A DNA stretch of 64,000 nt from Candidatus Bathyarchaeota archaeon (GCA_026014585.1 JAOZIA010000002.1:105677-169676); one strand, 5' to 3'; shown: positions 7,117 through 59,750, numbered from the stretch's first letter. The notes: a model not told the origin generated them from the sequence alone. Program-made: numbers and translations.

Positions 7117-7168
7117 CCTATTTGGAGCCTATTAGAAAGTCTATGCAGAAACCATAGAGGGGTCTACC
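7117..7168 (+). repeat. Interspersed intergenic repeat, copy 1 (core only)
   Basis: CCTATTTGGAGCCTATTAGAAAGTCTATGCAGAAACCATAGAGGGGTCTACC. Same core as the copies at 19853, 27138, 40103, 53080 and 59679. Confidence 0.85.
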
Positions 7169-7186
7169 TGAAAGCAAAGGGCAAGG

Positions 7187-7498
7187 TTAGATGACGTATG
7201 TTTCTTGTATAGTCACTAATCCGTCATCGCCGATTACTTGTTTGAGTTCGGGCAGTATAGGTTCCAGTTTTTCTTGCAGGTCGATGACTTCGATGATTAG
7301 GGGCATGTTGATTTGGACTCCTTCAAGGTGCATTGTGGATTTTCCGCGTTTACCGAACCCGTTCACGCCAGTCCACACTGTTGCACCCTCGATTTTGTTT
7401 TTGACAAGCAGTTCCATAATCAGGGTTTGTAATCGTTTACCGCCTAACTCATCGTTCTTTTTGATACGAATCGTTAAGTCCCACATTTTTTGCCTCAA
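7187..7498 (-). CDS. DUF190 (PII-like) protein, typical crcB partner
   Basis: 103 aa. GATVWTGVNGFGKRG...MPLIIEVIDLQEKLEPILPEL matches the DUF190 pattern. 4-nt overlap with crcB. Confidence 0.7.
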   Translation of the reverse strand: MRQKMWDLTIRIKKNDELGGKRLQTLIMELLVKNKIEGATVWTGVNGFGKRGKSTMHLEGVQINMPLIIEVIDLQEKLEPILPELKQVIGDDGLVTIQETYVI

Positions 7499-7884
7499 CG
7501 AACCAACCTCTCCATTATAACGTCGCCTAAGGCTCTGCCACCCATGACCGCAGCTAAAGATAAGCTAACGTTTGCTAGTATGTTTAGTGCAAGAAGGCTA
7601 AATCTGTTCGCATCCAAGAGATTGCTGGTTTCCAGTGCAAAGGAACTCATTGTTGTAAAAGAGCCACAGAAACCCACGGCGGTTAGTAGGGTGTATTTTG
7701 AGTCCAAATTCAAAGTCAACGCCAACACTGAGAATAGACCTAAAACGAAGCTGCCTGCAATGTTTACGGCTAAAACGTTTAGGGGTAAGCCGTAGAAGGT
7801 TTTGGGTGATTCTACAATTATGTATCTTAGGTATGCGCCTGCTACTGCGCCAGCTGCCAAGAGGAGGAATTCTATCATTTTCAT
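7495..7884 (-). CDS. crcB: Fluoride ion channel CrcB/FluC
   Basis: 129 aa, four hydrophobic segments. CrcB motifs GAYLRY, NIAGSFVLG and GFCGSFTTMSSF. Confidence 0.85.
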   Translation of the reverse strand: MKMIEFLLLAAGAVAGAYLRYIIVESPKTFYGLPLNVLAVNIAGSFVLGLFSVLALTLNLDSKYTLLTAVGFCGSFTTMSSFALETSNLLDANRFSLLALNILANVSLSLAAVMGGRALGDVIMERLVR

Positions 7885-7902
7885 GTCTTAACCTCATCGT
7901 TT

Positions 7903-7965
7903 GGTAGGCATTATCAGCAGCTTATTGGCGCGGTTTAGGCTTCTGCCTTGGCTAATGCCATAGCC
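7903..7965 (-). promoter_or_regulatory. Candidate fluoride (crcB-motif) riboswitch in the crcB leader
   Basis: Minus-strand RNA GGCUAUGGCAUUAGCCAAGGCAGAAGCCUAAACCGCGCCAAUAAGCUGCUGAUAAUGCCUACC. P1 is GGCU/AGCC with loop AUGGCAUU. Loop GGCAUU pairs with the downstream AAUGCC (pseudoknot). Conserved AAAC, UGAU and CCUACC are present. Ends 18 nt before the crcB AUG, with a GAGGU Shine-Dalgarno between. Confidence 0.5.
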
Positions 7966-8114
7966 ACCTCAATTTCTCTTTTGCAAGATTTTAAGTTTAT
8001 CGCAGCCAAACAGTGGATTGCACCATTTTGTACCTAAAAATAGCTGATTCATCTACTTTGCTTTAAGCTAATTCCTATATATCACCATTCCATAATCAAC
8101 ACTTGACATAAAAG

Positions 8115-9035
8115 ATGACGCTTGAAACCTTTGACGTAGCAGTAGTTGGGCACCTCTGCATAGACACCATAATGCTTCCAAGCAGAACACAGCCCTTCAG
8201 GGTTTTAGGCGGCGCAACCACGTATACTTCATTTGCTGTCAAGCATCTTTGCGCTTTACCCGCAGTCATCTCTAAAATCGGAGAAGATTTTCCCCAAGCA
8301 TACCTTTGGTGGCTACAGCAAGAAGGCATAAACACTTCTGCAGTCAAAATATCCCCAAATGAGCAATCAACCAGTTTTCAGCTTCAATACAGCAGTGACC
8401 TCAGCGAGCGCACCCTGACACTTAAAGGGCAAACATCCCCAATCACCATAGAAGATTTACCCAGCAATTTCCACTCAAAAGCGATTCACATAGCACCTAT
8501 AGCAGGCGAAGTCAGCTACGAAGTTGCAGAACAACTAAAAAGCTGCGCGGACATGCTCTCACTTGACCCTCAGGGGATACTGCGAAGTTTTGATGACAAG
8601 GGAAAAGTTGGAATAAAAGAGCAAGTTGACAAGAAAATTTTGGAGCTCATCAACGTTTACAAGTCCTCAATAGATGAGATTACCCTGTTAACTGGGCAAA
8701 CTGAACTGGGCAGGGCAATCAAAGAAGTGCATGATTTAGGCGTCGAAACAGTGATTATCACCATGGGAACCAAAGGCGCACTGCTGTCAACTCAAGGAGC
8801 CCAACATAATATACCCGCCTGCCAATCCGAAGTGCTTGTTGACCCAACAGGTGCAGGAGATGTCTTCATAGGAGGTTTCATAACTGAATACATCCAGAAA
8901 AAAGAGCCGCTTTGGTGCGCGTGTGTGGGTTCCGCGGCGGCATCATTGGTTGTTGAAGGGTTAGGTCCCACCTATTTTGGAAACCCGCAGGATATTTACT
9001 GGCGGGCAAATAAAATCTTCAAAAAAGAAAACTAG
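8115..9035 (+). CDS. PfkB-family carbohydrate/nucleoside kinase
   Basis: 306 aa. N-terminal VVGHLCIDT and C-terminal DPTGAGDVFIGGF, the PfkB signature 2. Confidence 0.8.
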   Translation: MTLETFDVAVVGHLCIDTIMLPSRTQPFRVLGGATTYTSFAVKHLCALPAVISKIGEDFPQAYLWWLQQEGINTSAVKISPNEQSTSFQLQYSSDLSERTLTLKGQTSPITIEDLPSNFHSKAIHIAPIAGEVSYEVAEQLKSCADMLSLDPQGILRSFDDKGKVGIKEQVDKKILELINVYKSSIDEITLLTGQTELGRAIKEVHDLGVETVIITMGTKGALLSTQGAQHNIPACQSEVLVDPTGAGDVFIGGFITEYIQKKEPLWCACVGSAAASLVVEGLGPTYFGNPQDIYWRANKIFKKEN

Positions 9036-9052
9036 TTTTGCTTTTGCATTTC

Positions 9053-9949
9053 CTACAAAATCTTGGGTAACTCTCCGTATTTTGCTTTATCATACGGGAC
9101 AGTGTCTTTGCGGTAAATCTCCATTGCTTTCTTTTGCCCTTCCTCAAATGTCATATTCCAATCCTGCTTTACATGAAAACGAGTGTACTCTTCTAGACTA
9201 TTGAAGCGGGGGTCACGGTTTACTTGGAAGTTCCAGAACATGCGCATAAGCATACGTTTGGGGGTTTTGATGTTGCAGTGGAAAATGTAGGGTTCATGCC
9301 ACCGCAGAATCTTATACCATGGTGGAAAACGGTGCCCCCAAATGCTGTCACCTGTAACTTGTTCCCACGAGTTGTCTTTGAGTTGCCAACGCAGTTCAGG
9401 ACTAAAAGTAAAAATGCGGGCCTCATAGATGCCAAAGGGGCAACTTTTGGGTTGACTGTTCAGGTCAACTTCCAAATTTATACGGGGCACATCAATCACG
9501 TAGTAACGGTTCTTATCCAACCTGTTTAGGCGTCCAATCCATTCCTGCAGTGCCTCTTTGCTTTTTATAACGTAGTCGCTGTCCCATTTGAAAACCCATC
9601 GATAACTTGTGCATGTTAAGCCGATGTGGCATGAAAGCGCGAAAGCGTTGGCACCTTGCCAGTAGAAGCGTATGTGTTTAATTTTGCTGTATTGTGCGGC
9701 GAGGTCTTGGATGATTTTTGTGGTGTTATCTTCTGCGCTGCTGTCTACAACGATGATTTCGTCAGCGACATCAACAATTGAGAGAAGGCTGGCTTTAATC
9801 CATTGTTCCTCATCTTTAACGGGAACAACAAAGCTTACGCCATCTTTGTGGTAGCGGGGTTTTTTGACCAGCCCAAGTTTTGGTAAAAATGAGGCAACAT
9901 TTCTGATACCTAATATCACTTTGTCTTTTGAGGTGATCGTGTCGTCCAA
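9053..9949 (-). CDS. Family-2 glycosyltransferase
   Basis: 298 aa. VSFVVPVKDEEQWIKASLLSIVDVADEIIVVDSSAEDNT is a GT-A fold N-terminus with a DxS/DxD-like motif. Confidence 0.7.
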   Translation of the reverse strand: MDDTITSKDKVILGIRNVASFLPKLGLVKKPRYHKDGVSFVVPVKDEEQWIKASLLSIVDVADEIIVVDSSAEDNTTKIIQDLAAQYSKIKHIRFYWQGANAFALSCHIGLTCTSYRWVFKWDSDYVIKSKEALQEWIGRLNRLDKNRYYVIDVPRINLEVDLNSQPKSCPFGIYEARIFTFSPELRWQLKDNSWEQVTGDSIWGHRFPPWYKILRWHEPYIFHCNIKTPKRMLMRMFWNFQVNRDPRFNSLEEYTRFHVKQDWNMTFEEGQKKAMEIYRKDTVPYDKAKYGELPKIL

Positions 9950-10129
9950 CGTTTTCCATCCAAGAGAGATTTATTATAGGATTAAGTACATTTGTGTTTA
10001 ACTTAATTTTTAACTTTACCACAAAAACAAAAAATCAACCCAAAGAAACAAGATTGAAAATTGCAAAACATATATCTCTAAACGCAATACACAATAACCC
10101 ATCAATAAGACAAGCACAGGCGAAACGAT

Positions 10130-10336
10130 TTGGGCAAAATAGAAAAAGGCATTAACTGTAACGTTTCAGGATGCGACAGTGAAGCTGCACGCTCAATATC
10201 AGCAGACAAAGTCAAGGCTGCTGGCTTAAGGGTTAGCGGCGCAGAAAAACGTGCTTACCTATGCAAAGAACACTACAAAGAATACAAAAAGAAAAGCAAA
10301 AAAGACAAGCAACTTGACAAGTGGCGCTTTGGCTAA
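10130..10336 (+). CDS. Small basic putative zinc-binding protein (hypothetical)
   Basis: 68 aa, TTG start. CNVSGC...CKEH is a possible CCCH ligand set, with a lysine-rich tail. Ends just inside the thrS upstream region. Confidence 0.35.
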   Translation: MGKIEKGINCNVSGCDSEAARSISADKVKAAGLRVSGAEKRAYLCKEHYKEYKKKSKKDKQLDKWRFG

Positions 10337-10350
10337 AGGATGAATTGCAC

Positions 10351-12249: not shown

Positions 12250-12332
12250 CAAATGAAATATATGGTTCATTGAGGCAATCCTTATCAAATAATCGAACAA
12301 TATTGAAGCAGTTATCGTGAAGTGAAAGACAA

Positions 12333-13217: not shown

Positions 13218-13336
13218 CTAAAAGATTGTTTGTAAATTTAGTAGGTGGCTACAAAATATAGAAGTCGGCAAGGGCATACTTTGCCGCTCTCTTCCTTTCT
13301 GTTGTATTGTTTTAAGGAGGTGGCGATAGTTTAACT

Positions 13337-13917: not shown

Positions 13918-13952
13918 AAACTATAGAGCCTAAAGGGAATTAGAAGAAAAAT

Positions 13953-18176: not shown

Positions 18177-18185
18177 GGCATTCGC

Positions 18186-18582: not shown

Positions 18583-19803
18583 TTAAGGCTTTGCAGTCAA
18601 ATAAGTCCAAACAAAATACGCCAACGCCGCAGCCATCGCAGGCTTCTTTGCAACCTGCAGTATCATTTGACCCTGAAAATCAATCTCCTCCACACTTGCC
18701 AATGCCCCATCAACGCCCAACCTTTTGCAGACACGCAAAACCTCATCCAACTTCGTATCCGAGAGCGAGTTGAGGAATTTTCGTAGACGAAGCATAACTG
18801 CAACGTCAAAATGTAGAGTTTCATTGCAGCGTTTCTGGTACTGAGCAAGCGCAGTTTGGGAGACATCGCCAGCTTTGAGGGCTGTTGCGGCTTCTTCCGC
18901 GGCGATTTTGGCGCAGGTTAACCCGAAAATGACGCCGCCGCCTGTGGTTGGCTTCACCTGTGAGGCGCAGTCGCCTACTGCTAAGAACCCGTCAGTGTAT
19001 GCTTTGCTGATTGGTCCACCCAAGGTGAGGGCGTGATAGTTGATTTTGACTATTTTTGAACCCGCAAGTTGGGTTTTGGCGATGGGATGCTTTGTCATTA
19101 ACCGTTCAAGCAGTGCCTTGGGGTTGCCAGTGGCGGTTGCTAAGCCCACTTTTGCTGTGCCGTCTGGTCGCGGGACCACCCAACCATAAAACCCATCCGC
19201 CACGCTCTGCCCGAGATAAACCTCAACCGCATGCGCCTCAACATTCTGCACCCTGTCAACTTCAGCTTCAACTCCGTACACGAGCCCTGAAGGTTTGAAC
19301 GATTTTAGTCCTGATTGATGTAGAAGCCGTGAGGAGATGCCTTCGCAGTCAAGCACGATTTTTGAGGAGACAGAGGTGCCGTCTTTTAGGTTCACACCTT
19401 TAACTGCCCCATTTTTCAGGATTAGGGATTGCACAGGCGTGTCAAGGTGGTAGGTTGCGCCTGCGGTTTGGGCTTGAGAGGCGATGTGTTGGTCGAATTT
19501 TGCCCGATTCAAAGCACACGTAACGGGCGTTTTGAGTTTGAGGGCAAATTTGGTGCCTTGGGGCGAGTAAAAGTTGGCTACGTTAAACGTGTTCTCCACA
19601 ATGCCGTTTGGCAATGGATAGTATCCTGCGGCTCGCAGACTTTTGATGCTTATGTGTCCTGTGCAGTGCGAAGGCAACCCAATAGTGGCGTGCTCTTCAA
19701 ACACTTCCGCATTAACGCCCAACTTAGCTAACTGAAGCGCAGCGTAGGAACCAACTGGGCCACCGCCGATTATTAGAGCGTCTGTCTGCATTGGGCATCT
19801 CAC
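18583..19803 (-). CDS. Geranylgeranyl reductase-family FAD-dependent oxidoreductase
   Basis: 406 aa. DALIIGGGPVGS FAD motif, the central GWVVP motif typical of GGR, and LAVGDCA. Confidence 0.8.
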   Translation of the reverse strand: MRCPMQTDALIIGGGPVGSYAALQLAKLGVNAEVFEEHATIGLPSHCTGHISIKSLRAAGYYPLPNGIVENTFNVANFYSPQGTKFALKLKTPVTCALNRAKFDQHIASQAQTAGATYHLDTPVQSLILKNGAVKGVNLKDGTSVSSKIVLDCEGISSRLLHQSGLKSFKPSGLVYGVEAEVDRVQNVEAHAVEVYLGQSVADGFYGWVVPRPDGTAKVGLATATGNPKALLERLMTKHPIAKTQLAGSKIVKINYHALTLGGPISKAYTDGFLAVGDCASQVKPTTGGGVIFGLTCAKIAAEEAATALKAGDVSQTALAQYQKRCNETLHFDVAVMLRLRKFLNSLSDTKLDEVLRVCKRLGVDGALASVEEIDFQGQMILQVAKKPAMAAALAYFVWTYLTAKP

Positions 19804-19852
19804 GTATGGGTTATCTGTTGACTGTGCTATATAAGAAACAACTATTTGCTGT

Positions 19853-19921
19853 CTATTTGGAGCCTATTAGAAATTCATTGCAGAAACCTATAGAGGGAGG
19901 CGGTCCCTAATGGCAATTTTC
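19853..19921 (+). repeat. Interspersed intergenic repeat, copy 2 (core plus 3' extension and T-run)
   Basis: CTATTTGGAGCCTATTAGAAATTCATTGCAGAAACCTATAGAGGGAGGCGGTCCCTAATGGCAATTTTC. Confidence 0.85.
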
Positions 19922-19995
19922 AGGTCAAAACAGTCACTGCTCAAAGGGATGGAACAGAAAAACAACAAAAAATGTTTTAAAAATGGAAAAGGGAT

Positions 19996-20226
19996 TTAGT
20001 GGACGAGTTCGATGCGTCGTTTGCCTCGTGACATGGAGGATAGACGGATTTTTTGGCTGACTTCAAGTTTGAGCAGTAAATCGTTGAAGTCTTTAAAGCC
20101 CATGTCTTCAAACTCGTCTTTTAACTGGTTAAATAGGTCATCATCGGTCATGTCGCCTTTTTTCCTGAGGATTTCTAACGCGACATAATGGGAGGGGCGG
20201 GTTTTCCAAGTTTTTATCTGTGGCAT
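19996..20226 (-). CDS. Small conserved-looking hypothetical protein, 17 nt downstream of cdc48
   Basis: 76 aa, clean ORF, same strand as cdc48 and probably cotranscribed with it. No motif recognised. Confidence 0.4.
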   Translation of the reverse strand: MPQIKTWKTRPSHYVALEILRKKGDMTDDDLFNQLKDEFEDMGFKDFNDLLLKLEVSQKIRLSSMSRGKRRIELVH

Positions 20227-20242
20227 GTTTGTTTCGCTTCTC

Positions 20243-22414
20243 TTATGTTACTGGTGTTGCTGGTTTTTGTACTTGACGGATTTGCGCCATGAAACTCTTG
20301 TACCATTTCTCCATATCCGGCGTAATTGATGGACCCATCTCTTTCATTGCATCTTGGAAATCAGCCATGAAAACCTCAGTGGTCTTCACGTCTCGACGCA
20401 ATGCATGCATAGCAGCTTCACGGCATAATGATTCAATATCTGCGCCAGAATAATACTTAGTCACCAACGCAAGCTGGTTTAGGTCCACGTCTTTTCCGAG
20501 AGGCATTCCCTTTGTGTAGAGCTTAAAGATTTGCGCTCGGCTCTTTTCGTCAGGTTCAGGTACGTAGATTAGGCGGTCAAATCTGCCGGGTCGAATCACA
20601 GCGGAATCCACCATGTCAGGTCGGTTAGTCGCTGCGATAACTACGATATCGTGAAGGGTAGTGATGCCGTCCATTTCGGTTAGGAGTTGGCTGATAACAC
20701 GTTCTGAAACGCCGCTGTCGCTCATGCCCATGCCACGTCGTGGTGTTAGAGAATCGATTTCGTCAAGGAATATGACTGCTGGGGCTGCCATGCGGGCTTT
20801 GCGGAAGACTTCACGGATGGCTTTTTCGGATTCGCCTACCCATTTGCTGAAAACTTCAGGACCCTTAATGGATATGAAGTTGGCTTCGGATTCAGTAGCT
20901 ACTGCTCGTGCCAGCAGGGTTTTGCCACAGCCAGGTGGACCATACAGTAGTATACCTTTTGGTGCGCGAATACCCAGACGAGTGAACAGTTCAGGGGTTT
21001 TAATTGGCCATTCCACTGCTTCTTTTAGGTGCTGTTTAACATCATCTAATCCACCTGCGTCTTCCCAATGCACAGATGAAACTTCAATGTAAACTTCACG
21101 CATAGCGGTTGGTGTAACTTCTTTGTAGGCACCCATGAAATCATCCATGTTAACCTCCATTTTCTCTAGCACTTCAGGAGGAATCCGTTCCTCTTCAAGG
21201 TTGATTTGGGGCAAGTAGCGTCTTAGGGCTTTCATGGCGGTTTCCCGTCCCAGCGAGGACAGGTCAGCGCCTGTGTAGCCATGGGTCATATCTGCGAGTT
21301 TTTTGAGGTCAACTCCCTCTGCAAGAGGCATCCCGCGGGGGTGGATCTGCAGAACTTCGTAGCGTCCTTTCTTGTCGGGGACGGCAATTTCGATTTCACG
21401 GTCAAACCTTCCTGGTCTGCGAAGTGCAGGGTCAAGTGCGCCTGGACGGTTTGTGGCTCCAATAACTATGACGTTACCTCTTCCACCTAACCCATCCATC
21501 AAAGCTAAGAGTTGCGCAACAACACGGCGTTCCACTTCGCCTGTGACTTCTTCACGTTTAGGCGCAATTGCATCAAGCTCATCAACAAAGATTATGCTGG
21601 GTGCGTTTTGTTGGGCTTGCTGGAAAATCTCGCGTAATCGGGCTTCGGATTCGCCGTAGAATTTGCTCATGATTTCGGGACCGTTTATGCTGTAGAAGTT
21701 GGCTTCGGACTCGTTAGCGACTGCTCGGGCAAGCAGGGTTTTGCCGCATCCTGGTGGTCCGTGTAGGAGTACACCTTTGGGTGGTTCGATTCCGAGGCGC
21801 TGGAAAAGTTCAGGGTGGCGTAGGGGCAACTCTACCATTTCTCTGACGCGTTGGATTTCTTCGTGGAGTCCGCCGATGTCTTCGTAGGTTGTGCGGGGTA
21901 AGCCTTTGCCTTCGGGTGCGGGTTCGTTTAGGATTGTTAGGCGGGTTTCCGCGGTTACTTTGATTATGCCATGGGGTCGGGTTTTGGATACTGTAAAGGG
22001 GATTGCGTGACCAAGCATCATAACCAGCGTGGTGTCGCCTTCAACTAAGGTGCGCTCCATCAAGCGGTTTTTGACAAAATTGGTGAAGTCATCATCAACG
22101 TTTAAACGCATATCCACAGGCGCAAGCGTGAGGCTCAGCGCGGTTTTGACTTTGGCGGGTCGGATAACGACGTATTCGTTTATGGCTACGCCGCAGTTTT
22201 TGCGTGTGAACCCATCAATTCTGATTATGTCACGGTTCTGGTCTTCACTGTACGCGGGCCATGCAATCGCGCTGGTTGTGCGTTTGTTAACGATTTCGAT
22301 AACGTCTCCTGCGCTTATTTCCAGTTTCTGCATGGTTCGCTGGTCAATGCGTGCAATACCTCTACCAACATCACGCTGCCTTGCGTCTCCAACACGTAAT
22401 TGAACTTCACTCAT
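20243..22414 (-). CDS. cdc48: AAA+ ATPase Cdc48/VCP/p97 (VAT-like), two AAA domains
   Basis: 723 aa. N-domain [18 protein letters not shown], two Walker A motifs GPPGCGKT, two Walker B motifs (IIFVDELD and IFLDEID). Confidence 0.9.
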
Positions 22415-22531
22415 CGCTAAATATGTCTCCTGATAAATTGATGCACTGTTTCTTTTGGTTTATACCTATATAAACTTAAAGGAAGCTAAAAGAAAAGGGT
22501 TTAGGTGTAGGTTTAGGTGCAGATGGCAGCT

Positions 22532-22807
22532 TTAACGGCTGGTTCTGCGAATGTTGAAAGATTCTGCTTGGCTAACACCTGGGATTTTTCCGAGTGCAAC
22601 CTCGAATTCTTCAACTATGCCCATCTTGTCTTCGGGAAAACGAATCTGAACAAGCAGAGCTTTGAGACCAAAAGCAACATCCTCGGTTCCCCAGCCTTCA
22701 ATAGCGGCGGACTCGGGAAGGATTGCTTTGACTTTTTCTTTCATAGGTTCAAAGTCTTCGACGATGTCTTCAGGAAAAACCTTGTAAACAACAAGAATTG
22801 CGCCCAT
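22532..22807 (-). CDS. Translation elongation factor aEF-1 beta
   Basis: About 91 aa. MGAILVVYKVFPEDI...VAFGLKALLVQIRFPED fits the aEF-1beta pattern. Start could also be the adjacent ATG at 22810. Confidence 0.75.
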   Translation of the reverse strand: MGAILVVYKVFPEDIVEDFEPMKEKVKAILPESAAIEGWGTEDVAFGLKALLVQIRFPEDKMGIVEEFEVALGKIPGVSQAESFNIRRTSR

Positions 22808-22818
22808 CACTATTCACC

Positions 22819-23013
22819 TTATGGTCCTTGGAACCCGCATTTGGGGCACCTATAGGTTCTGCCGAATTTGCGGCATTTTCCGTCGCGTTTAATCTGGATT
22901 TCTCCGCAGTTTGGGCACAGGAATTTTGTAGCTTCGCTTCCTGGCGCAATTGGTTTACCGCAGCTGGTGCAGGTAACCATGGATAATGCTTGTCTTTCAG
23001 TCATAAACGACAC
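22819..23013 (-). CDS. Zn-ribbon protein commonly linked to aEF-1beta
   Basis: 64 aa with four CxxC pairs: CTSCG, CPNCG, CRKFG-context and CPKCG. Sits immediately upstream of aEF-1beta. Confidence 0.6.
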   Translation of the reverse strand: MSFMTERQALSMVTCTSCGKPIAPGSEATKFLCPNCGEIQIKRDGKCRKFGRTYRCPKCGFQGP

Positions 23014-27035: not shown

Positions 27036-27137
27036 TTATGTTCACCTTTAAGTGTGGATAAGCTGATACCCCACTTACAGATAAAAACATTCTTTTCAGG
27101 CAACGGTGGAGGGCTGTTTTCTTCATACTTTTGGATT

Positions 27138-27208
27138 GGAAAACACGCTATTTTTGGACCCTCCCCTCTATGGTTTCTGCATTGAATTTCTAATAGGCTC
27201 CAAATAGG
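27138..27208 (-). repeat. Interspersed intergenic repeat, copy 3
   Basis: Reverse complement reads CCTATTTGGAGCCTATTAGAAATTCAATGCAGAAACCATAGAGGGGAGGGTCCAAAAATAGCGTGTTTTCC. Confidence 0.85.
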
Positions 27209-27240
27209 CGGCAAATAGAATGGAAATTAGCAGGGTATGT

Positions 27241-27271
27241 TTGACTAATCTTTGACAAGACGGTTAGTCAA
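27241..27271. promoter_or_regulatory. Inverted repeat TTGACTAA-N15-TTAGTCAA abutting a TATA-like box upstream of the wHTH-membrane gene (candidate operator)
   Basis: Perfect 8-bp arms at 27241-27248 and 27264-27271. A related TTGACTAAGCTAAGTCAA occurs at 494-511. Confidence 0.3.
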
Positions 27272-37758: not shown

Positions 37759-37866
37759 GCCGGGGTAGCCTAGCCTGGCTAGGGCGCCAGACTCATAATC
37801 TGGAGAGTCACAGGGCCAAGCGCCCCTACCCAGAAGTCGCGGGCTCGAATCCCGCTCCCGGCACCA
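37759..37866 (+). tRNA. tRNA-Met/Ile2 (anticodon CAT) with a 30-nt insertion (intron) in the variable region; CCA encoded
   Basis: Hand fold:
- Acceptor GCCGGGG/TCCCGGC.
- D arm GCCT-AGCCTGGCTA-GGGC.
- Anticodon arm CCAGA-CTCATAA-TCTGG, intact.
- T arm GCGGG-CTCGAAT-CCCGC.
- 30 extra nt at 37804-37833, between position 43 and variable loop AAGTC. Confidence 0.75.
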
Positions 37867-39977: not shown

Positions 39978-40102
39978 CTATCATACACCATGTCTAACAA
40001 TAATGTTTGTTGAAGAGGCTTATTGTTTTTTCGTAAACAAAGAACAGCCAAAACAAGCACCCAACAAAGAACTATCAACAAAAGAAAGCACAGCCTTTTG
40101 AA

Positions 40103-40171
40103 GTGAAAAGTAGCCATTATTGACCTCCCCTATACAGCTTCTGCAATGAATTACTAATAGGCACCAAATAG
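40103..40171 (-). repeat. Interspersed intergenic repeat, copy 4 (most diverged)
   Basis: Reverse complement reads CTATTTGGTGCCTATTAGTAATTCATTGCAGAAGCTGTATAGGGGAGGTCAATAATGGCTACTTTTCAC. Confidence 0.8.
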
Positions 40172-40193
40172 ACGAGAAATGGAAATGTTGACA

Positions 40194-40973
40194 TTAAAAT
40201 CTGATTTCTGATTTTATTTTATGGGCTTCCTGTAGACATTTATGAAGGCTAACTATTTTATCCCATGTTACTATCCTTGCAATGTCTCTCATTTCATGAA
40301 AAGATCCTTCAAGAAGTATTGTTGCTTGTGCCGCATATTTTTCTGTGGTAACTAAAAAGGGCGTGCTATTCCATTTATCCCAAGCATGCTTAAGTTTTGT
40401 TAAAGCTTCATAAAAGTTTCCAGCGAGCTGAACCTCAAAAGCCCACTTTGGGTTACCTGTAGGAATAGTTTTCCAGACAGCATCCAATCGCCAATTATCT
40501 ATAGTGTATTCAACTTCGGCGATTTTTCCTTCAATCTTACCTATTTCATAAATCATATCGCGTAGTTCATTATGTTTTGGAATTTTCTCAATAGGTTTTT
40601 CTTTTGTGATAACATGTTTTTGTATATCTTTGGCTGGATTCAAGAAATAAGCGAATTCAGAAAAACGTTTTAGAGAAGTATCAGTTATTTCTGAAGGATT
40701 TTCCTTTAGAAGGTCAAGACCTCTTTGTGTTATTTTAAAGTAACCTCTTTTGGTGCCCTCTAAAAGTTTTGCTTTTCCAAGGTATGTCCTAGCCCATGCA
40801 ACGCGGTTATTAACTAATAAACCCCCTGTTGCCTTCTTGGCAATTCTTTCTTCATCAGTTAATGAAAATATGCTACAGATATGTTCAATAGTTTCTGATA
40901 ATGAATGCTCTTTTTTATCACATATAAATTTCAGAAAAGGAAGGAGCATTCGTTCATAACTTGGAATAGCCAT
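40194..40973 (-). CDS. Mrr_N winged-helix domain fused to a putative PD-(D/E)xK-like nuclease domain (solitary restriction-like protein)
   Basis: N-terminus MAIPSYERMLLPFLKFICDKKEHSLSETIEHI...NNRVAWARTYLGKAKLLEGTKRGYFKITQRGLDLL is a close match to the Mrr N-terminal domain pattern. The C-terminus has E...RLDAVW...FEVQL, a possible nuclease core. The gene is visibly more AT-rich than its neighbours. Confidence 0.6.
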   Translation of the reverse strand: MAIPSYERMLLPFLKFICDKKEHSLSETIEHICSIFSLTDEERIAKKATGGLLVNNRVAWARTYLGKAKLLEGTKRGYFKITQRGLDLLKENPSEITDTSLKRFSEFAYFLNPAKDIQKHVITKEKPIEKIPKHNELRDMIYEIGKIEGKIAEVEYTIDNWRLDAVWKTIPTGNPKWAFEVQLAGNFYEALTKLKHAWDKWNSTPFLVTTEKYAAQATILLEGSFHEMRDIARIVTWDKIVSLHKCLQEAHKIKSEIRF

Positions 40974-50450: not shown

Positions 50451-50621
50451 ACACTTCTGGAAACCCGTTACGTCTGTTTTGCCTATTTAAACTGCCTCTC
50501 AAACTACCTTTCTAGACGGGGGAGAGGTAAGTTAAAGTGAACTGCCTTTTGCAAACAAACAGGCCAAATAACAAACATTTTTCTTTTTAGATGTACATAT
50601 TTTCTTTTAGGATGACCTATA

Positions 50622-52178
50622 ATGGGTCAGGCTTCTGATTTTTTAAATAACCAACACGCCGTAGAAGGCACAAGAGTAAAGGTTTCTAAAAGAAAAACAC
50701 GGCGAGACAAGTATAAAATTGCATGGGACATCCTAGAAAGCATTGATGATTACATCAGCGCATTTGACAAAGATTGGAATTTTATTTACCTAAACAAAAA
50801 AACCGCTAACGATTTTGGTCTTGCCCCAAAAGATTTAATGGGTAAAAATTTTTGGGAAACCTTCCCAAATTTCCTTGGAACTGATATTTCAAAATACTAT
50901 TGTGAGGCAATGTACAAAAGGAAAGTGAAACGGTTTGAATGGAAAACCATCTATGCCAACACTGGATACAGAGAATTCACAGTTTTCCCCTCACACGAAG
51001 GCATCACAGTATATGGGGTAGACATTAACCAGCGTAAGGAACTTCAGAAAAAACTTGAAGAATACACCAAAAACCTCGAAAAACTCGTAGAAGAAAGAAC
51101 AAGAAAAATCCGTGAAAGCGAACAAAGCTACCGTGAACTATATGAAAGCTTTGGGGAAGCATTCATCGCCACCGACTGGGAACTAAACGTTATACACTGG
51201 AACAAAGCAGCAGAGGAAATCACGAAAGTCACAGCTAAAGAAGCACTGGGAAAAAAAATTTACGATATTCTACCTGAAATGGACACTGTTAATGTTACAC
51301 CCTACTTTGAGTCCTTGCAAGAAAAAAGTCCCGCACGTTTCATGATGAAAACCACAAGCAGACAAACTGGGCGCGCCGCAATTTTTGAAATCTCAACTTA
51401 TCCCTCAACATTAGGAGTCATAATTATTGTAGAAGACAAAACCGAGGAGGAGAAAATAAAACGGCTTTTAACAATTGGTCAAACAGCAGGCATGGTTGGG
51501 CATGACATCCGCAACCCTCTACAATCAATTATGTCCTCGATGTTTTTAATAAAAAATAACCTAAACAATTTGCCTAAAAGTGCTGATAGAAGTGAAGCAA
51601 TACAAGAAGCAGATTCCATTTTAGAGCAGATAAGCTATGTGGACAAAATTGTTTCGGATTTACAGGATTATGCACGTCCGTTGAAACTGGAAATTGTTGA
51701 AGTGAACCTAAAAACGCTAATCGCAAACACACTGTCCACCCTAAATATCCCATCCAATATTGAAGCGGCAGCATATTTTGACCCCAAACTGCCCAAAATA
51801 AAAACTGACCCAACCCTTCTAAAACGCGTACTACTAAATCTAGCAACCAACGCAATACAAGCTATGCCTGAAGGCGGCAAACTATCCATAAAAACCAGCC
51901 GAGACAAGGACCCAGACAAATTTGCAATAACCATCCAAGACACAGGCGTAGGTATCCCCAAAGAAATACAGGATAAACTGTTCACGCCGCTGTTTACAAC
52001 TAAGTCAAAGGGCCAGGGATTTGGCTTAGCAGTTGTTAAGCGTCTGGTTGAAGCTCAGGGAGGAACAATAAGTTTTGAAAGCCAAGAGGGCAAAGGAACC
52101 AAATTCACAGTCAACCTTCCCACTCAGAATAAACGCAAATCAGCCTACACTATAGAAAACGGAAGGCTACGGCTTTAG
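50622..52178 (+). CDS. Cytoplasmic sensor histidine kinase with two PAS domains
   Basis: 518 aa. Two PAS-like segments separated by a coiled coil, H-box GMVGHDIRNPL, and N/G1/G2 boxes (NLATNAIQA, DTGVGI, GQGFGL). Confidence 0.8.
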   Translation: MGQASDFLNNQHAVEGTRVKVSKRKTRRDKYKIAWDILESIDDYISAFDKDWNFIYLNKKTANDFGLAPKDLMGKNFWETFPNFLGTDISKYYCEAMYKRKVKRFEWKTIYANTGYREFTVFPSHEGITVYGVDINQRKELQKKLEEYTKNLEKLVEERTRKIRESEQSYRELYESFGEAFIATDWELNVIHWNKAAEEITKVTAKEALGKKIYDILPEMDTVNVTPYFESLQEKSPARFMMKTTSRQTGRAAIFEISTYPSTLGVIIIVEDKTEEEKIKRLLTIGQTAGMVGHDIRNPLQSIMSSMFLIKNNLNNLPKSADRSEAIQEADSILEQISYVDKIVSDLQDYARPLKLEIVEVNLKTLIANTLSTLNIPSNIEAAAYFDPKLPKIKTDPTLLKRVLLNLATNAIQAMPEGGKLSIKTSRDKDPDKFAITIQDTGVGIPKEIQDKLFTPLFTTKSKGQGFGLAVVKRLVEAQGGTISFESQEGKGTKFTVNLPTQNKRKSAYTIENGRLRL

Positions 52179-53005: not shown

Positions 53006-53079
53006 TCTTCACTCAAATGTTGGTGGGTGTGTTATATTTGCTTTTTACTTAATTACCGCATCACGACACCATAACCTAT

Positions 53080-53166
53080 CTATTTGGAGCCTATTAGAAA
53101 TACAATGCAGAAACCATAGAGGGGTCTAAGGGATTCCTAAGAGGAGGCTCATATTGGAGTGTTTTA
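53080..53166 (+). repeat. Interspersed intergenic repeat, copy 5 (core plus alternative 3' part); a degenerate fragment follows at 53224-53254
   Basis: CTATTTGGAGCCTATTAGAAATACAATGCAGAAACCATAGAGGGGTCTAAGGGATTCCTAAGAGGAGGCTCATATTGGAGTGTTTTA. Confidence 0.85.
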
Positions 53167-53421
53167 ATCCAAAAATGTGTTGCCCTTTCAGGGTTTTTAG
53201 TTGTGCTGGTGTGTTTACATGTGCCTAGTTTGCCATTAGTTGCAGAAACCTGTCAATTTCTGATGGTGTATCTCCTGGTTTTTCTTGTTTACAGCAACTT
53301 TCTCCATTACCACTTCAATTTGCCTTTTTTATCTATGGCATTTTTCTGGTTTATTTTAGAGTTAACTTAAAGAACCAGAACCAAATATAAATTAGCAAAA
53401 AAGGGAGAATTCACGGGGAAA

Positions 53422-55066
53422 GTGGTGTTCGGGTCTGGCAATAGCAACATTTGAAGAAATTAGTGCATCCGATTTTTTCTACAGAAACCGCGACATAGCA
53501 GGCTTAACCAACCCATCTAGAGCCATATTTGTTGCGCTCCGAGAAATCGTAGAAAACAGTCTTGACGCGGCGGAGAGCCAAAAAATCCCACCTGACATTT
53601 ACGTGCGTCTCTCTTTTGAATCGGAAGCCACCAAAGAAACGCAGATTTACAAGCTCCGAGTTGAAGACAACGGCTCAGGAATCCAGCCCAGATTCATACC
53701 CTCCGCATTTGGGCAAGTCCTCTACGGCTCCAAATACAAACTCAAACAGATGCGTGGAACTTTTGGCTTAGGCGGAAAAATGGCGGTTCTACACGGGCAA
53801 GTCACAACGCATCAACCCGTTATCGTAACCTCCTGCACGGGTGGGTCATCAAAAATTTACAGTTTCAAGCTGATGATTGACATTCAGCGAAACCGCCCAA
53901 TAATTCTGGAACGAAAAGTCCTTATGAACAAGGATAATTGGCGTGGCACCATTGTGGAGTTCACTTTAGAAGGCGATTATCTTAGGGCTATGCCGAAAAT
54001 TTTGGAGTACTTTAAGCAGACTGCCATGTTTAACCCATACGCCAACATCACCTTTGTTGACCCCAAAGGCAGACTCTACAAATTTAAACGCGCAACAACC
54101 GCCATGCCCGAGCCCCCCAAAGAAACAATGCCGCACCCCTACGGCGTAGACGTAGAACTCCTGCAACGAATAATCCAAGTAACACCCTACGATAACATGC
54201 TAGATTTTCTCAAAGGACATTTCCATCGAGTTGGAGATATCACCGCGCAGAAATTCTTGCTTTTCAGCGGCTTAACCACTGCGACCTGTACCCAGCATGG
54301 AAAACGCACATTTGAACAGCTGAACTGGGTTGATGGAAAACCCAAATGTGCTCAATGCGGTCAAAACATGCAACTCAGTAAGCAAAAAAATCCCAAAAAG
54401 CTCTCCCATGAAGAAATCGTAAGGCTCATGCAGAACCTCAAAAAATACAAAGAGTTTCTGCCGCCAGATGCCAATTGTCTCTCGCCAGTGGGGGAGGAGC
54501 TTTTGAAAGCTGGTGTTATGAAGGAGTTGAATCCTGAGCAGCTTGTGGTTTATCAACGCAAACCCTCAACGTATGCGGGGCACCCCTTCATTGTGGAGAT
54601 GGCTATAGCATACGGCGGAGACGTTCCAAAACGGAGCAATTTTGTAGTTTACCGCTTCGCAAACAAAATCCCGCTGCTCTATGATGAAGCCAGCGACGTG
54701 TCTTTCAAAGTTATTCAATCTATGAATTGGCGACGCTACAAAGTTACTTCAGACATGCCCATCGCAATTGTTGTGCATGTTTGCAGCACCAAAGTCCCAT
54801 ACAAAACCGTGGGCAAAGAATTCATATCTGACCGCCCCGAAGTGCGTAAAGAAGAAGCTAACGCGCTCAGGGAGGTTTCAAGGCAGCTTGGGCACTTTTT
54901 GGCTCGTCAAGAGCATGTTCACATGGAAAAGAAACGGTTGGGCATCTTTAGCAAATACTTGCCTAAAATCGCCCAGTTTTCAGCTATGCTTGCTGGGCAA
55001 GAAAAAATTCCTGACATAGATAAACTGTTAAAGAGTGTACAAAAGTATGGCAATGAAGAAAGCTAA
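53422..55066 (+). CDS. top6B: DNA topoisomerase VI subunit B; true start unresolved (the body frame is open from 53396, first canonical in-frame start is GTG 53603)
   Basis: Frame of 53603..55066 extended upstream reads TFEEISASDFFYRNRDIAGLTNPSRAIFVALREIVENSLDAAE (Bergerat N-box), then VEDNGSGI (G1 box). 53422 is an out-of-frame GTG behind a TATA-like box and is given only as the outer bound. Confidence 0.85.
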
Positions 55067-56150: not shown

Positions 56151-56155
56151 CCTTT

Positions 56156-56398
56156 TTATTTTTCCAGCATTTTAAGCGTTTTTTCTGCAGTTGAGACACA
56201 AAAAAGCAAATCATCAATGGTAGCCGTGAAAGTGGCAAGTTTTCCCTGACACACAATCTCAGTAACTACAGCGTTGCCTTCTCGGCAGGTTTTAACAGTT
56301 AAACCCGCGGGAGCTTTAAAATTGTCAGGCGAAACCGCATCTGCAACAGCCTGCGCCGCTTTTTCGTCAACGTAATTAAGCACTATTTTGGCTTCCAA
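56156..56398 (-). CDS. Pcc1-like KEOPS subunit (tentative)
   Basis: 80 aa. AAQAVADAVSPDN...VVTEIVCQGKLATFTATIDDLLFCVSTAEKTL follows the Pcc1/CTAG pattern as I recall it. Overlaps the upstream RecJ-like gene by 23 nt. Confidence 0.45.
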   Translation of the reverse strand: MEAKIVLNYVDEKAAQAVADAVSPDNFKAPAGLTVKTCREGNAVVTEIVCQGKLATFTATIDDLLFCVSTAEKTLKMLEK

Positions 56399-57851
56399 GT
56401 TTCTCGCCCTTTAATTGCCGCCCGATTAATTCATCAACAATTTTGACAAATCCATCAACTTTTTCTAAGGGGCACTGTGCGCCTGCTGCGATGTTGTGTC
56501 CTCCGCCTTTGCCTTCGCTTTGTTCGGATGCTAACCGCATGACTTCGCCGAGGTTGACGCCTTTGCGGACTGCTGTATCACTGGTTCGTGAGGAGAATTT
56601 GACTGCGTTTTCTCCTTCTACTTTTGAGTATGCGATGACGGGTTTTTCCGTGTTTGGCAGGCTGTTTACGATGATGGAGCTGACGGTGCCAATGATTTTT
56701 TCGTTGATAAAGTCCTCGCCGTTAATAACGTAGATGTTGCTGAGTTCTTTCATGCGTTCAGGCTTTTCCATAACCCAGCCAAGATACTTGTTGATGCTCT
56801 TGCGGTAATCCTCCAAAATCTTGTTAGCCTCTGATAATGCGGCGGTGCGGTCGCCCATGCAAATTGCAATGCCCAAGCTTGGACGGTCCATGCGTCCTGT
56901 CGAGTTCAAAATAACCGCAAATTCCCTGCCATCACGCAGTGCAGTGTTAGCTTCCTCATGTGTCAGCACGTAAATGTGGCCAATTAGGCTATCAACTTCT
57001 AAGTGCATCTTTTTAGATAGCAGATGGTCTGCAAGAGCTGAGCAGAGCTTTTTTCGTTCTTCATCGTTTAGGTCGCTAAGTGCACGGAATTTTTCGCCCT
57101 GCTTTATGGGAATGTTTAGGCTCACCATAAACGCTAAGGCTTTGTCTTCCTCACCGCTCAAGCCTGGAATGAACGGGTTAGTTGTGGTAGCAAGCATCTT
57201 GTGAATTGCCCGTGTTTCTCTGCCAAAAAACGTTAAGTCCTTAACCACCTTAACCAAACCCGCCGCAACCGCATCATCCACAATCAGCTCGTTTAAGCCA
57301 CCAAGGGCACGCTGGTCATAATGATCCTGCATATCACCCAATGCACCAATTAACGCGATTGGTGCTAAATCCACGTTTGAATGATTCATAGCCTTAGCAA
57401 CAAAATATGCAACACCCGAACCGCTAACTTCTGTGGCGCCATCAATTCCGTAAACGTGCGGGTTAACTTGTACATGGTTTGGATTGGTTAGTGTTCTTGC
57501 GATTTGGTGGTGGTCAAGTATTGTGATTTTGGTGTTGGGAATTTTTTGGTTAAGAAGGTCAAGATAGCCGCTGCCAAAATCAGTGAAAATAACCAGTTGA
57601 GGTTTGTCCGCTACGATTTCGCCGACAATTTTCTCATCTACCCACTGAGTGATGCGAATACGAAAACGCGCGCCCAGTCTAAAGAGTGCTTTACCGATTA
57701 CTCCTGCTGCTGCAATACCATCAGCATCCAAATGTGAAAACACGTGGATAAAGCCGTCTTTGGCAACGGTTTCGGTGATGACTTTTGCGGCTACTTGAGC
57801 GGATTTTTGGAATTGCTCGATTTGTTCTTGTTTAATTGGCATGCGGCTCAC
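56376..57851 (-). CDS. RecJ-like DHH-family phosphoesterase/exonuclease (archaeal RecJ/GAN/Cdc45 homolog)
   Basis: 491 aa. DHH motifs VFSHLDADGIAA, TDFG, LDHHQ. DHHA1-like GGGHNIAAG near the C-terminus. Adjacent to uS15, as in many archaea. Confidence 0.8.
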   Translation of the reverse strand: MSRMPIKQEQIEQFQKSAQVAAKVITETVAKDGFIHVFSHLDADGIAAAGVIGKALFRLGARFRIRITQWVDEKIVGEIVADKPQLVIFTDFGSGYLDLLNQKIPNTKITILDHHQIARTLTNPNHVQVNPHVYGIDGATEVSGSGVAYFVAKAMNHSNVDLAPIALIGALGDMQDHYDQRALGGLNELIVDDAVAAGLVKVVKDLTFFGRETRAIHKMLATTTNPFIPGLSGEEDKALAFMVSLNIPIKQGEKFRALSDLNDEERKKLCSALADHLLSKKMHLEVDSLIGHIYVLTHEEANTALRDGREFAVILNSTGRMDRPSLGIAICMGDRTAALSEANKILEDYRKSINKYLGWVMEKPERMKELSNIYVINGEDFINEKIIGTVSSIIVNSLPNTEKPVIAYSKVEGENAVKFSSRTSDTAVRKGVNLGEVMRLASEQSEGKGGGHNIAAGAQCPLEKVDGFVKIVDELIGRQLKGEKLGSQNSA

Positions 57852-57942
57852 TTTGGAACATAAAAGACGGTTTGTTTAGATTTAAAGCTCACGTATTAAG
57901 ACACAGAAAGCAAAAGGGATTAAACCGAAAGAAAAGGATGGT

Positions 57943-58383
57943 TTAGAAGATTGAAGCGATTTTTGCTTCGTACTTCCAGTTCTTTGCGACCACGCCTTCA
58001 CGTTTGTAGTAGCGTGAAAGTTTGTGGATTCTTGCCTCGATAACTTGCATGTTGCGTTTGTTGTGGAGGTCTTTTTTGTTTTTCTCCATGTGAACTGCAA
58101 GACCGTTGGCTTTTTTCACCAAGTTGGCAAGGTCTTCGGGCATTGATGGCTCAAGACCTGCTGCTTCAAGAATCTCACTTACGCTTTTGCCCACTATGGG
58201 TTTAACCAGTGGGATTGCGTATTGGTCTCGTAAGACTGTACCTATGCTACTCATTGAGTGCCCTTCTTTAGCAAGACGAATAACAAAAGCTTCAACCTCT
58301 TCAGGCTGGTACTTGCACCAGCTTGGGGGTCTGCGGCTTACTGGTCTTGTTGAATGTGATTTTCCTTTTTCCTGTTTTGGCAT
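57943..58383 (-). CDS. rps15: Ribosomal protein uS15 (S13e type)
   Basis: 146 aa. HSTRPVSRRPPSW N-terminus and C-terminal S15 helix HNKRNMQVIEARIHKLSRYY. Confidence 0.9.
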   Translation of the reverse strand: MPKQEKGKSHSTRPVSRRPPSWCKYQPEEVEAFVIRLAKEGHSMSSIGTVLRDQYAIPLVKPIVGKSVSEILEAAGLEPSMPEDLANLVKKANGLAVHMEKNKKDLHNKRNMQVIEARIHKLSRYYKREGVVAKNWKYEAKIASIF

Positions 58384-58608
58384 CTTTACACCTTAAACTC
58401 TGCAATAACCACTAAAGACAAATATTTTAATCTAGTGCTTACTTCAGCCAAAAACATGTTTGTAACATCACTTTAGCGTACAATTATCAGTGAAACAGCG
58501 TGTTGAATTGTTTAATTAATGCAATCGAGCAACCGCTTATTTGAAAAAATCTATAAATCATCCAGCCCCCATTTTTCGCTGGGTCTCTAGAAGAGAGAGG
58601 GAATAAAC

Positions 58609-59031
58609 GTGCAGAAGAGGGGGTTCCAACTTTTACTGCTAACCATAACCGCAGCCTTTATGGTTTGTACTTTGCTGATTAGCAGTTTATGTATGGGTGC
58701 CCCTGCAATTCAAGATGTAACCATAACAATAGACGGAGATAGCACCTTATACAGCAGTAGTGATTCTTCAATTCCGCTTCGCTGGGGCAACGTTGATTTT
58801 GGTTGCAACACCAAAACAGTCACAATAACCAACAATGCAGAATCAGACCTCCACATAAACATGGCTGTTTCAGAGTTGCCCTCTGGCTGGACGCTTAATT
58901 TTTCACTTGAAAACAAGGTGTTGCAGGCTGGATCCTCTGCTACTGGAACTTTAACGTTAACTGTGCCTGCAGATGCGTTAGCTGGCAGTTACCATTGGAA
59001 CACAAATATCGCCCTGTGCACCGTGTCGTAG
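58609..59031 (+). CDS. Small secreted/anchored beta-rich protein (hypothetical)
   Basis: 140 aa, GTG start. N-terminal hydrophobic segment LLLLTITAAFMVCTLLISSL. Ser/Thr/Asn-rich beta-sandwich-like remainder. Confidence 0.4.
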   Translation: MQKRGFQLLLLTITAAFMVCTLLISSLCMGAPAIQDVTITIDGDSTLYSSSDSSIPLRWGNVDFGCNTKTVTITNNAESDLHINMAVSELPSGWTLNFSLENKVLQAGSSATGTLTLTVPADALAGSYHWNTNIALCTVS

Positions 59032-59200
59032 CTCTTTGTTTAGCAAAAGATAGAAAAACAAAGCAACCCATAGTTACTGACAGTGAACATGTTTGGCGTT
59101 AAACTGTTACCTCTCCAACAAAACCATCTGGATTGACTCAGCAGGATGGAGCGACCTGCTCTTGGGCGTGGTAGTTTGTGTTCTAAAACCGCCAGACCCC

Positions 59201-59650
59201 ATGTTGCTGGAACGCCGCATTTCAGTGTCGTCTTTTCAATCGCCAAACTTTCAAAGCAAAAAATATCTTTCTGACGCTGTGCGAATCGCAAATGAAATCG
59301 TTTCAGTCATGCAACCCGACAGTGACACATGCATCAAAGTCTGCTCTGAGTATGTGCTCTCAGGCGTGATTGAGCACCTCAAAAACCAAGGTTTTAACGT
59401 GCAAAAAGTCGAATCCACTGGCGAGCTCGCAGTGCAAACTGATAAAGCCTACATTCGCTGGTGCATAGAAAAAGGTGTTCCCGAAGAAATACTGCGTGAC
59501 AAAAAACGCTTCTTTGCCTTTGTTGATTGGGTTGCGGAAGCGCCTCATCTGCGAGAAAGCCTTGTTAAGACAGGCTGGGACAGTTGGGAAGGCAAATGGA
59601 AAGCAGAAGTAGCTCGAATACACCAAGAAAAACGCAAACCCCAAAACTAA
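59201..59650 (+). CDS. Hypothetical cytoplasmic protein
   Basis: The ORF track gives 59093..59650. I prefer the internal ATG 59201 (MLLERR...) because the upstream 36 codons look non-coding. No motif recognised. Confidence 0.35.
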   Translation: MLLERRISVSSFQSPNFQSKKYLSDAVRIANEIVSVMQPDSDTCIKVCSEYVLSGVIEHLKNQGFNVQKVESTGELAVQTDKAYIRWCIEKGVPEEILRDKKRFFAFVDWVAEAPHLRESLVKTGWDSWEGKWKAEVARIHQEKRKPQN

Positions 59651-59678
59651 CCTCAAGGGCACACCCTATTTTTTGGTT

Positions 59679-59750
59679 GGGAAAACCGCTATTAGGGCTC
59701 TACCCCTCTATAGGTTTTCTGCATACTTTGGCTAATAGGCTCCAAATAGG
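59679..59750 (-). repeat. Interspersed intergenic repeat, copy 6
   Basis: Reverse complement reads CCTATTTGGAGCCTATTAGCCAAAGTATGCAGAAAACCTATAGAGGGGTAGAGCCCTAATAGCGGTTTTCCC. Confidence 0.85.

Follow-up and report, generated by a model that had tools for sequence, protein, structure and literature searches.

What kind of element recurs six times within 64 kb of an archaeal chromosome, on both strands and always between genes? The question is raised by one stretch of a Candidatus Bathyarchaeota archaeon assembly (GCA_026014585.1, JAOZIA010000002.1:105677-169676), whose full length of 64,000 nucleotides (nt) is referred to here as the window. An earlier note, made from the sequence alone, had described in it an interspersed repeat with a shared core and had considered it compatible with a gene for a structured RNA of about 70 nt. 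The explanation which we favour, with a probability of roughly 0.55, is that the element is a lineage-restricted, modular (mosaic) interspersed DNA repeat, an archaeal counterpart in kind of the bacterial interspersed mosaic elements and repetitive extragenic palindromes (BIME/REP) and of BOX elements, and not an RNA gene.

The six copies do belong to one repeat. An 18-mer, CTATTTGGAGCCTATTAG, occurs exactly at 7118(+), 19853(+), 27207(-), 53080(+) and 59749(-) and with one mismatch at 40171(-), that is, six matches where dinucleotide-preserving shuffles predict 0.07. Scanned with a profile hidden Markov model trained on 66 copies, the window yields these six and no others (E 1e-11 to 6e-18), the rest being noise. 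All of them lie between long open reading frames (ORFs) on the ORF map, with housekeeping genes on either side, at a density of about one element per 10 kb. The strands read + + - - + - in order, and convergent, divergent and tandem gaps are all represented, as the earlier note had stated.

The family extends well beyond the window. The family set consists of 92 stretches with the exact 18-mer, taken as 8-kb loci from a collection of species-representative genomes. Nearly all of them come from about 27 Bathyarchaeia metagenome-assembled genomes (MAGs), with 1-17 exact copies per genome, and the carriers include the Bathy-6 genomes F86/F90/F112, ADS1 and SRBZ_5. The few bacterial matches correspond to chance or to apparently mis-binned contigs: CAILAO010000329.1, filed as 'uncultured proteobacterium', has a bona fide element, and DATKLC010000021.1, filed under Krumholzibacteriaceae, has the 18-mer together with 66-67% nucleotide identity to the window at 10.9-15.2 kb, both being probably mis-binned Bathyarchaeia contigs. 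A viral origin was discarded, as the 18-mer was found in 0 IMG/VR viral contigs. The element is restricted to some uncultured Bathyarchaeia and is patchy even among relatives; in fact, only 5 of 80 metagenomic TopoVI-B loci (424 kb, with TopoVI-B 77-83% identical to that of the window) hold any copy. Literature searches found no description of repeats, miniature inverted-repeat transposable elements (MITEs) or small RNAs in Bathyarchaeia.

The anatomy of the element emerges from 90-odd distinct copies. Module A comprises a leader, C[CG]A[AG][CT], the 18-mer, about 7 variable nt and (A/T)TGYWGAAACC(T)ATAGRGGGG, the core after the variable stretch reading ATGCAGAAACC(T)ATAGRGGGG, followed by either TAGGTC or TCTACC. 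The 18-mer is a near-palindrome, CTATTTGG-AG-CCTATTAG, and the variable nucleotides are a few recurrent 'alleles'. Module B, a frequent second near-palindrome, consists of CTATTGGC, a loop of 7-10 nt and GCCA(A/T)(A/T)AG, and continues with CATGTTGAAAAC; it has in common with the 18-mer both the half-site CTAWT(T)GG (in module B, CTATTGGC...GCCATTAG) and a T·T mismatch. Modules A and B can be separated by an optional middle module ending in CTAAGGGGGTAGGT, and a TATA-like module C lies 3' of the element in some MAGs. Both edges are sharp: on the left, conservation ends abruptly at -5, with an information content of about 0 beyond, and on the right it ends after GTTGAAAACC, about 12 nt past the second palindrome, as seen in the orthologous pair of loci L056/L069. 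The shared core of the earlier description stands, whereas the limits given there do not, as the conserved unit starts 5 nt earlier and usually reaches 90-105 nt by way of the second module. A second motif described at the same time can be read directly in all six copies, but the pattern as typed matches once at <=3 mismatches, because its T is an indel.

A finer periodicity runs through this architecture. CTAT recurs every 11-12 nt through module A (CTATTTGGAGC, CTATTAGnnnnn, CTATGCAGAAAC, CTATAGGGGG...), the 18-mer and the core lie 11-12 nt apart in 66 copies and 22-23 nt apart in 14, and seven copies, two of them in the window (copies 2 and 3, counted from its start), have an extra upstream CTATTTGGCGY unit. 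When several copies share a locus, they are almost always on the same strand, head-to-tail and often about 6 nt apart. Whole 11-nt units are gained and lost, and the elements stack head-to-tail. With respect to the flanking genes, their orientation is random (opposite/opposite 35, same/opposite 29, opposite/same 24, same/same 20). The 138 flanking ORFs represent 129 Pfam families, none occurring more than twice and none a transposase, and no recurrent linked gene came out of ORF clustering in the 92 loci or of the Pfam scan of these ORFs.

Moreover, copies are homogenised or re-copied within each genome, by gene conversion or by copy-and-paste. The 60 nt 3' of the 18-mer align with a mean score of 17.2 within genomes and 3.0 between them (permutation p<0.0005), and for 47 of 90 copies the nearest neighbour belongs to the same genome, where 6.2 would be expected. 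At a fixed site, the interior of the element is replaceable while the flanks stay nearly identical. In the orthologous loci L056 (ADS1) and L069 (Bathy6-F112), whose flanks are about 98% identical, a tRNA-Pro gene included, the interior has been swapped module by module, with sharp borders at CTATTTGG and GTTGAAAACC. Since the swapped segments are 'alleles' found elsewhere in the family, the exchange points to gene conversion or re-insertion, not to point mutation.

The elements also mark variable or rearranged intergenic DNA. An element lies upstream of TopoVI-B in none of the 56 loci with the ancestral/common ABCE1-TopoVIB adjacency and in 4 of the 19 with a rearranged or expanded upstream region, namely the window, SRBZ_5, L115 and L140 (Fisher p ~0.003, hand calculation); in L115 and L140, a Kelch-repeat surface-protein gene has been inserted there. 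When the window was compared with its relatives at the protein level, gene order was kept in 0 of about 5 element-bearing gaps and in about 5 of the 9 other gaps, small numbers with which the location of elements at synteny breaks is suggestive only. The closest relatives of the window's PhoU-like protein show 86-88% amino acid identity to it. In the nearest of them, contig P0003 (JGI sample 3300075153; 87% on this protein), the genes for geranylgeranyl reductase, Cdc48 and EF1β adjoin the glutamate-synthase/PhoU cluster; the same two gene groups are about 11 kb apart in the window (553-7108 and 18583-22855), with copies 1 and 2 on or inside the margins of the block between them.

In what we take to be the most likely mechanism, the CTAT-phased half-sites would line up on one face of the DNA helix as an array of sites bound by a sequence-specific protein, which could be a recombinase or transposase copying the element, or else a host nucleoid or regulatory protein adapted to it. 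The copying itself would proceed by gene conversion or by means of a recombinase or transposase acting in trans. A narrower proposal, that the elements are dispersed arrays for a dedicated single-copy protein (a domesticated HUH or other recombinase, a ribbon-helix-helix or a winged-helix protein), seems to us doubtful.

Several points weigh against the reading as a modular DNA repeat. The orientation of the 18-mer is near-invariant, with about one exact flip in 90 copies, and this fixed asymmetry is not needed by a simple symmetric dimer site, so that a strand-specific or RNA-level role is possible; flip-flop of the 18-mer, which had been considered as evidence of a symmetric site, was rejected as too rare (one exact inversion, in L060, and a few variants). 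The apparently perfect conservation of the 18-mer is partly a matter of ascertainment, because the loci were picked by their exact 18-mer, and copies outside this selection do vary within it. The ORF calls behind the figures on orientation to flanking genes are heuristic. Furthermore, about 1.2 Mb of locus DNA revealed no protein partner, transposase, terminal inverted repeat (TIR), target-site duplication (TSD) or autonomous copy, and for this reason the mechanism of copying is one that we only infer. No clean pair of filled and empty sites was obtained either, L083 and L024/L070 being too rearranged for clean junctions, so transposition is not separable from gene conversion.

The main rival, unlikely as we consider it, is a non-autonomous IS200/IS605-type element (similar to REPs or to palindrome-associated transposable elements, PATEs), which a Y1 HUH transposase from another part of the genome would move in single-stranded form. 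The hairpins of the left and right ends would then be formed by the two near-palindromes, and insertion would take place 3' of C[CG]A[AG][CT] as the target. Non-autonomous PATEs are known for this family. The half-site and the T·T mismatch common to both near-palindromes fit such ends, as do the degenerate 5-nt motif placed exactly at the left boundary, beyond which conservation ends, the right boundary about 12 nt past the second palindrome, and the likeness of copies within a genome. The lack of TIRs and TSDs, which the earlier note had pointed out and which was corroborated at the six window copies (no consistent terminal inverted repeats or flanking direct repeats), also speaks for it. Nevertheless, in the 1.2 Mb of locus DNA no copy bearing tnpA/tnpB has these ends, no pair of A and B modules encloses an ORF-bearing segment of 1-2 kb, and there is no transposase in the window. 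In addition, the hairpins are broken in many copies, and the complementarity of the arms is no greater within a copy than between copies. The succession of strands in the window, probably within one replichore, shows no strand bias, and module A can stand alone, without the putative right end, as in copy 1. While IS200-type Y1 transposases are present in Archaea, enzymes of the type of the REP-associated tyrosine transposases (RAYTs) have not been seen there (PMC6006769), and no gene for a RAYT (Y1 HUH) was found among the 138 flanking ORFs of the 8-kb loci.

Another alternative, which we regard as quite improbable, is that the elements are small non-coding RNAs, or motifs in longer transcripts, which act by their conserved primary sequence and not by a conserved fold, perhaps through binding to a protein or to a second RNA. 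The strongly uneven conservation (the 18-mer and ATGCAGAAACCTATAGGGGG are kept, while the 7 nt between them vary), the nearly fixed polarity of the 18-mer with respect to the remainder of the element, the T-run of some copies and the persistence of positions between species at some loci would agree with a function at the RNA level. However, exact 11-nt indels and head-to-tail arrays are unlike RNA genes, and the orientation to genes is random, some copies being antisense to both neighbours. A scan of the whole window against Rfam (E<=10), with the families of C/D-box small RNAs and CRISPR direct repeats (CRISPR-DR) included, gave no match over any copy, in line with the earlier opinion that no known RNA family is involved. 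RNAalifold yielded no consensus fold for the 23 copies with modules A and B (-1.29 kcal/mol, 3 pairs). The helix which the earlier note had proposed between the 5' and 3' parts (GCCTATTAG with CTAATGGC) does not hold: its 80% pairing is due to the conservation of both arms and to nothing else, with 0 compensatory changes in these copies and one position unpaired in 17 of the 23. Covariation in module B, a first impression from few copies, was ruled out by an arm-swap test, in which 54 distinct B modules paired with their own arms no better than with swapped ones (-3.7 vs -4.0 kcal/mol, p=0.86); many of these modules fold to 0 kcal/mol, and pairing amounts to 61.5% in the hairpin and to 62.5% in column shuffles. 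The six window copies each fold in a different way, with no gain over shuffled sequence (z between -1.23 and +0.78). A promoter of their own is not apparent, as a TATA-like motif at -40..-13 is seen in no more than 4 of 92 copies and conservation is lost beyond -5. The oligo-T terminator suggested earlier fails as well, since the T-run of the window copies is an A-run in many others, and the strand of the T-run is unrelated to the direction of the upstream gene (25:16, not significant). A structured, independently transcribed 70-nt RNA is, therefore, unsupported.

The elements might instead be cis-regulatory cassettes for their neighbours, either an operator with a promoter or a bidirectional terminator, an explanation which we find very unlikely. 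In some MAGs, the element does sit between arrays of a palindrome, GTCAAGATTTCTTGAC, and the TATA-like module TTTATATAAGGGGGCTATAG, and TopoVI-B is preceded by identically oriented copies in four lineages. A tRNA gene, moreover, lies on the opposite strand 85-260 nt from an element at five independent loci (L021, L022, L056/L069, L081 and L001), the two being divergent in four of the five, where about one case would be expected by position (a rough estimate for 8-kb loci). Against a regulatory function, the type of gap is as random as the orientation, the flanking genes have no common function, and copy 1 fills a 78-nt gap bounded by two gene 3' ends. The TATA-like module can be directed at a convergent gene from its 3' side, and the TopoVI-B promoter is kept without the element in 56 of 56 relatives. 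The null results for the T-run strand, which leave no terminator signal, and for the TATA-like motif, added to the random orientation, bear out the earlier remark that a simple promoter or terminator role does not fit.

Finally, the idea of scattered orphan CRISPR-repeat-like units or ORB-like origin boxes is largely refuted, since the likenesses that we presume, of the palindrome tail ATGYWGAAA(A)C to the 3' handle ATTGAAAC/G in CRISPR repeats of archaea and, loosely, of CAGAAAC-N5-GGGGG to an ORB with its G-string, are accompanied by no array detectable with Tandem Repeats Finder, no unique regular spacers (about 6 nt between tandem copies), no cas genes in the window and no match to the CRISPR-DR families of Rfam. 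ORB and mini-ORB sites need an invariant TTCC...GAA core and cluster at oriC (PMC1904270), whereas the element has no TTCC and is dispersed among housekeeping genes.

Returning to the modular DNA repeat, the element is closest in kind to BIME/REP, BOX and PATEs but is a member of none of them. Like the BIMEs and REPs of enterobacteria and pseudomonads, it combines short imperfect palindromes with other motifs in mosaic intergenic units, present in many copies per genome among core genes, homogenised within the genome and differing in composition at a given site between close relatives. BIMEs/REPs serve as protein-binding sites in bacteria (PMC2817692). The orientation of BIME/REP units alternates, whereas the archaeal elements are head-to-tail on one strand, with AT-rich and often broken stems, no clear GTAG/CGTC tag and no sequence similarity; the palindromic unit of a REP measures 20-40 bp, and here an 18-bp near-palindrome and a palindrome with 8-bp arms exist at the consensus level, though many copies do not fold. 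REPs have no counterpart of the 11-nt phased sub-repeats. In Streptococcus pneumoniae, BOX elements have the order boxA-boxB(n)-boxC and about 100-200 nt, and are intergenic, in either orientation and without a transposase of their own. The modular order with an optional, repeatable middle (A, the module ending in ...CTAAGGGGGTAGGT, B and, in some MAGs, C) recalls them, but BOX forms stable hairpins and is confined to streptococci, whereas the element has no stable fold and no sequence relation to it. Like PATEs and MITE-like IS200/IS605 derivatives (Haloquadratum, Geobacillus), the element has neither TIRs nor TSDs, carries palindromes close to each end and a short conserved sequence where the left junction falls, and is scattered in archaeal genomes as non-autonomous copies. 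PATEs, in contrast, usually have several hundred bp and ends in common with tnpA/tnpB elements, and no such parent was found here; the hairpins of the element are not maintained, nor is there strand bias in the window. Its six copies lack the TIRs and TSDs by which MITEs are recognised. In iteron- or centromere-type arrays, such as the 11-bp repeats of plasmid R1 parC, spacing by a helical turn and a variable number of units are typical of cooperative binding by protein on a single face of the DNA. Direct sub-repeats one helical turn apart, in variable number, are also found in the element, but iteron/parC arrays occur once per replicon beside the cognate gene, whereas the elements are dispersed and have no linked gene.

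Within the window, the copies illustrate most of this variation. Copy 1 (7113..7168, +) is a module A only, with the leader CCAAC, the 18-mer at 7118-7135, 7 variable nt and then ATGCAGAAACCATAGAGGGGTCTACC; its gap is the convergent one between the genes for the PhoU-like protein and CrcB. In the same short gap region, a fluoride riboswitch (RF01734, 39.8 bits; 7898-7974, -) lies directly upstream of crcB (7495-7884, -), an ordinary pairing. Copy 2 (19842..19931, +) starts with an 11-nt extra unit, CTATTTGCTGT (19842-19852), followed by the 18-mer (19853-19870), the core and a module B at 19906-19931, CCTAATGGC-AATTTTCAG-GTCAAAAC, and it is antisense to both neighbours (geranylgeranyl-reductase-like and Cdc48). 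Copy 3 (27115..27218, -), in the divergent gap between a GHMP-kinase gene and a helix-turn-helix (HTH) gene, has its extra unit, CTATTTGCCGC, at 27208-27218, the 18-mer at 27190-27207, the core and a module B end, ATGAAGAAAAC. The most diverged is copy 4 (40091..40176, -), in a tandem gap, where the 18-mer with its single mismatch (40154-40171) is followed by the core TTGCAGAAGCTGTATAGGGG and by module B, AATAATGGC...TTCAAAAGG.

Copy 5 (53075..53182, +) has the 18-mer at 53080-53097, the core, a middle-module insert, GGGGTCTAAGGGATTCCTAAGAGGAGGCTCA, and a B-like module, TATTGGAGTGTTTTAATCCAAAAATG. It precedes the true TopoVI-B start by about 260-360 nt: the mechanically called start at 53603 (+) is too far downstream, as the N-terminus of the relatives, ATFEEISASDFFYRNRDIAGF..., aligns from about 53444, and a conserved promoter-like sequence, GTTAACTTAAAGAA, precedes it at about 53372. 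The degenerate piece described earlier at 53224..53254 (+), a fragment of module A reading GCCTAGTTTGCCATTAGTTGCAGAAACCTGT, does share GCCATTAG-TTGCAGAAACC with the family, including the exact 10-mer repeat TGCAGAAACC, but is weak in the profile search (nhmmer E=4). Copy 6 (59662..59754, -), in a convergent gap 3' of an ABC-2 permease gene, comprises the leader CAAAC, the 18-mer at 59732-59749, the core ATGCAGAAAACCTATAGAGGGG and a module B, CTAATAGC-GGTTTTCC-CAACCAAAAAATAG.

The window itself has about 45% G+C and holds nothing but housekeeping genes, which encode glutamate synthase subunits, the PhoU-like protein, CrcB, ThrRS, ProRS, TruD, Cdc48, aconitase X, UbiD, a GHMP kinase, ribosomal proteins, Spt5, TopoVI A/B, ThiF and ABC transporters, with no transposase, integrase or cas genes. 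A 105-nt tRNA at 37759-37863(+), missed by ARAGORN and scoring 54.4 bits with Rfam, is probably an intron-containing archaeal tRNA. Two tandem copies of a 21-mer, ACATTTTTCTTTTAAGATGT, at 50575-50614, directly upstream of the gene for a PAS-domain histidine kinase (50622-52178), may be a regulatory site. A second repeat family, unrelated to the element, is made of the palindrome GTCAAGATTTCTTGAC(T/A)AAC, in arrays just 5' of elements in L011, L023, L036, L115 and L140, with weak relatives in the window at 27236-27270 and about 40190-40200; in L115, L140 and L023 it falls within the promoter region of a divergent gene for a secreted or membrane protein, and its appearance is that of a transcription-factor operator. 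The TATA-like module C, TTTAWATAAGGGGGCTATAGnCTnnnCCGAGCA, found 3' of elements in L007, L011, L022, L023, L034, L053, L083, L084, L115 and L140, may be a portable promoter.

In bacteria, REP/BIME, BOX, Correia and REPIN repeats shape chromosome structure, transcript stability and rearrangement, and archaeal equivalents are barely described. In this context, the element seems to change more rapidly than the DNA on either side and to lie where gene order breaks. It is a likely substrate of recombination in one of the most abundant groups of uncultured archaea, and it can be used as a lineage marker. For annotators, the results are a warning against labelling loci of this kind as small RNA genes. 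Moreover, the 18-mer together with the 11-nt array offers a bait with which a putative DNA-binding or recombination protein might be found. Should the elements indeed serve a dedicated single-copy protein, they would be the first system of REP-RAYT-like (REPIN-type) or chromosome-organising repeats to be described in Archaea, in which repeat and protein would be co-inherited within one lineage of Bathyarchaeia and would drive the rearrangement of its genomes.

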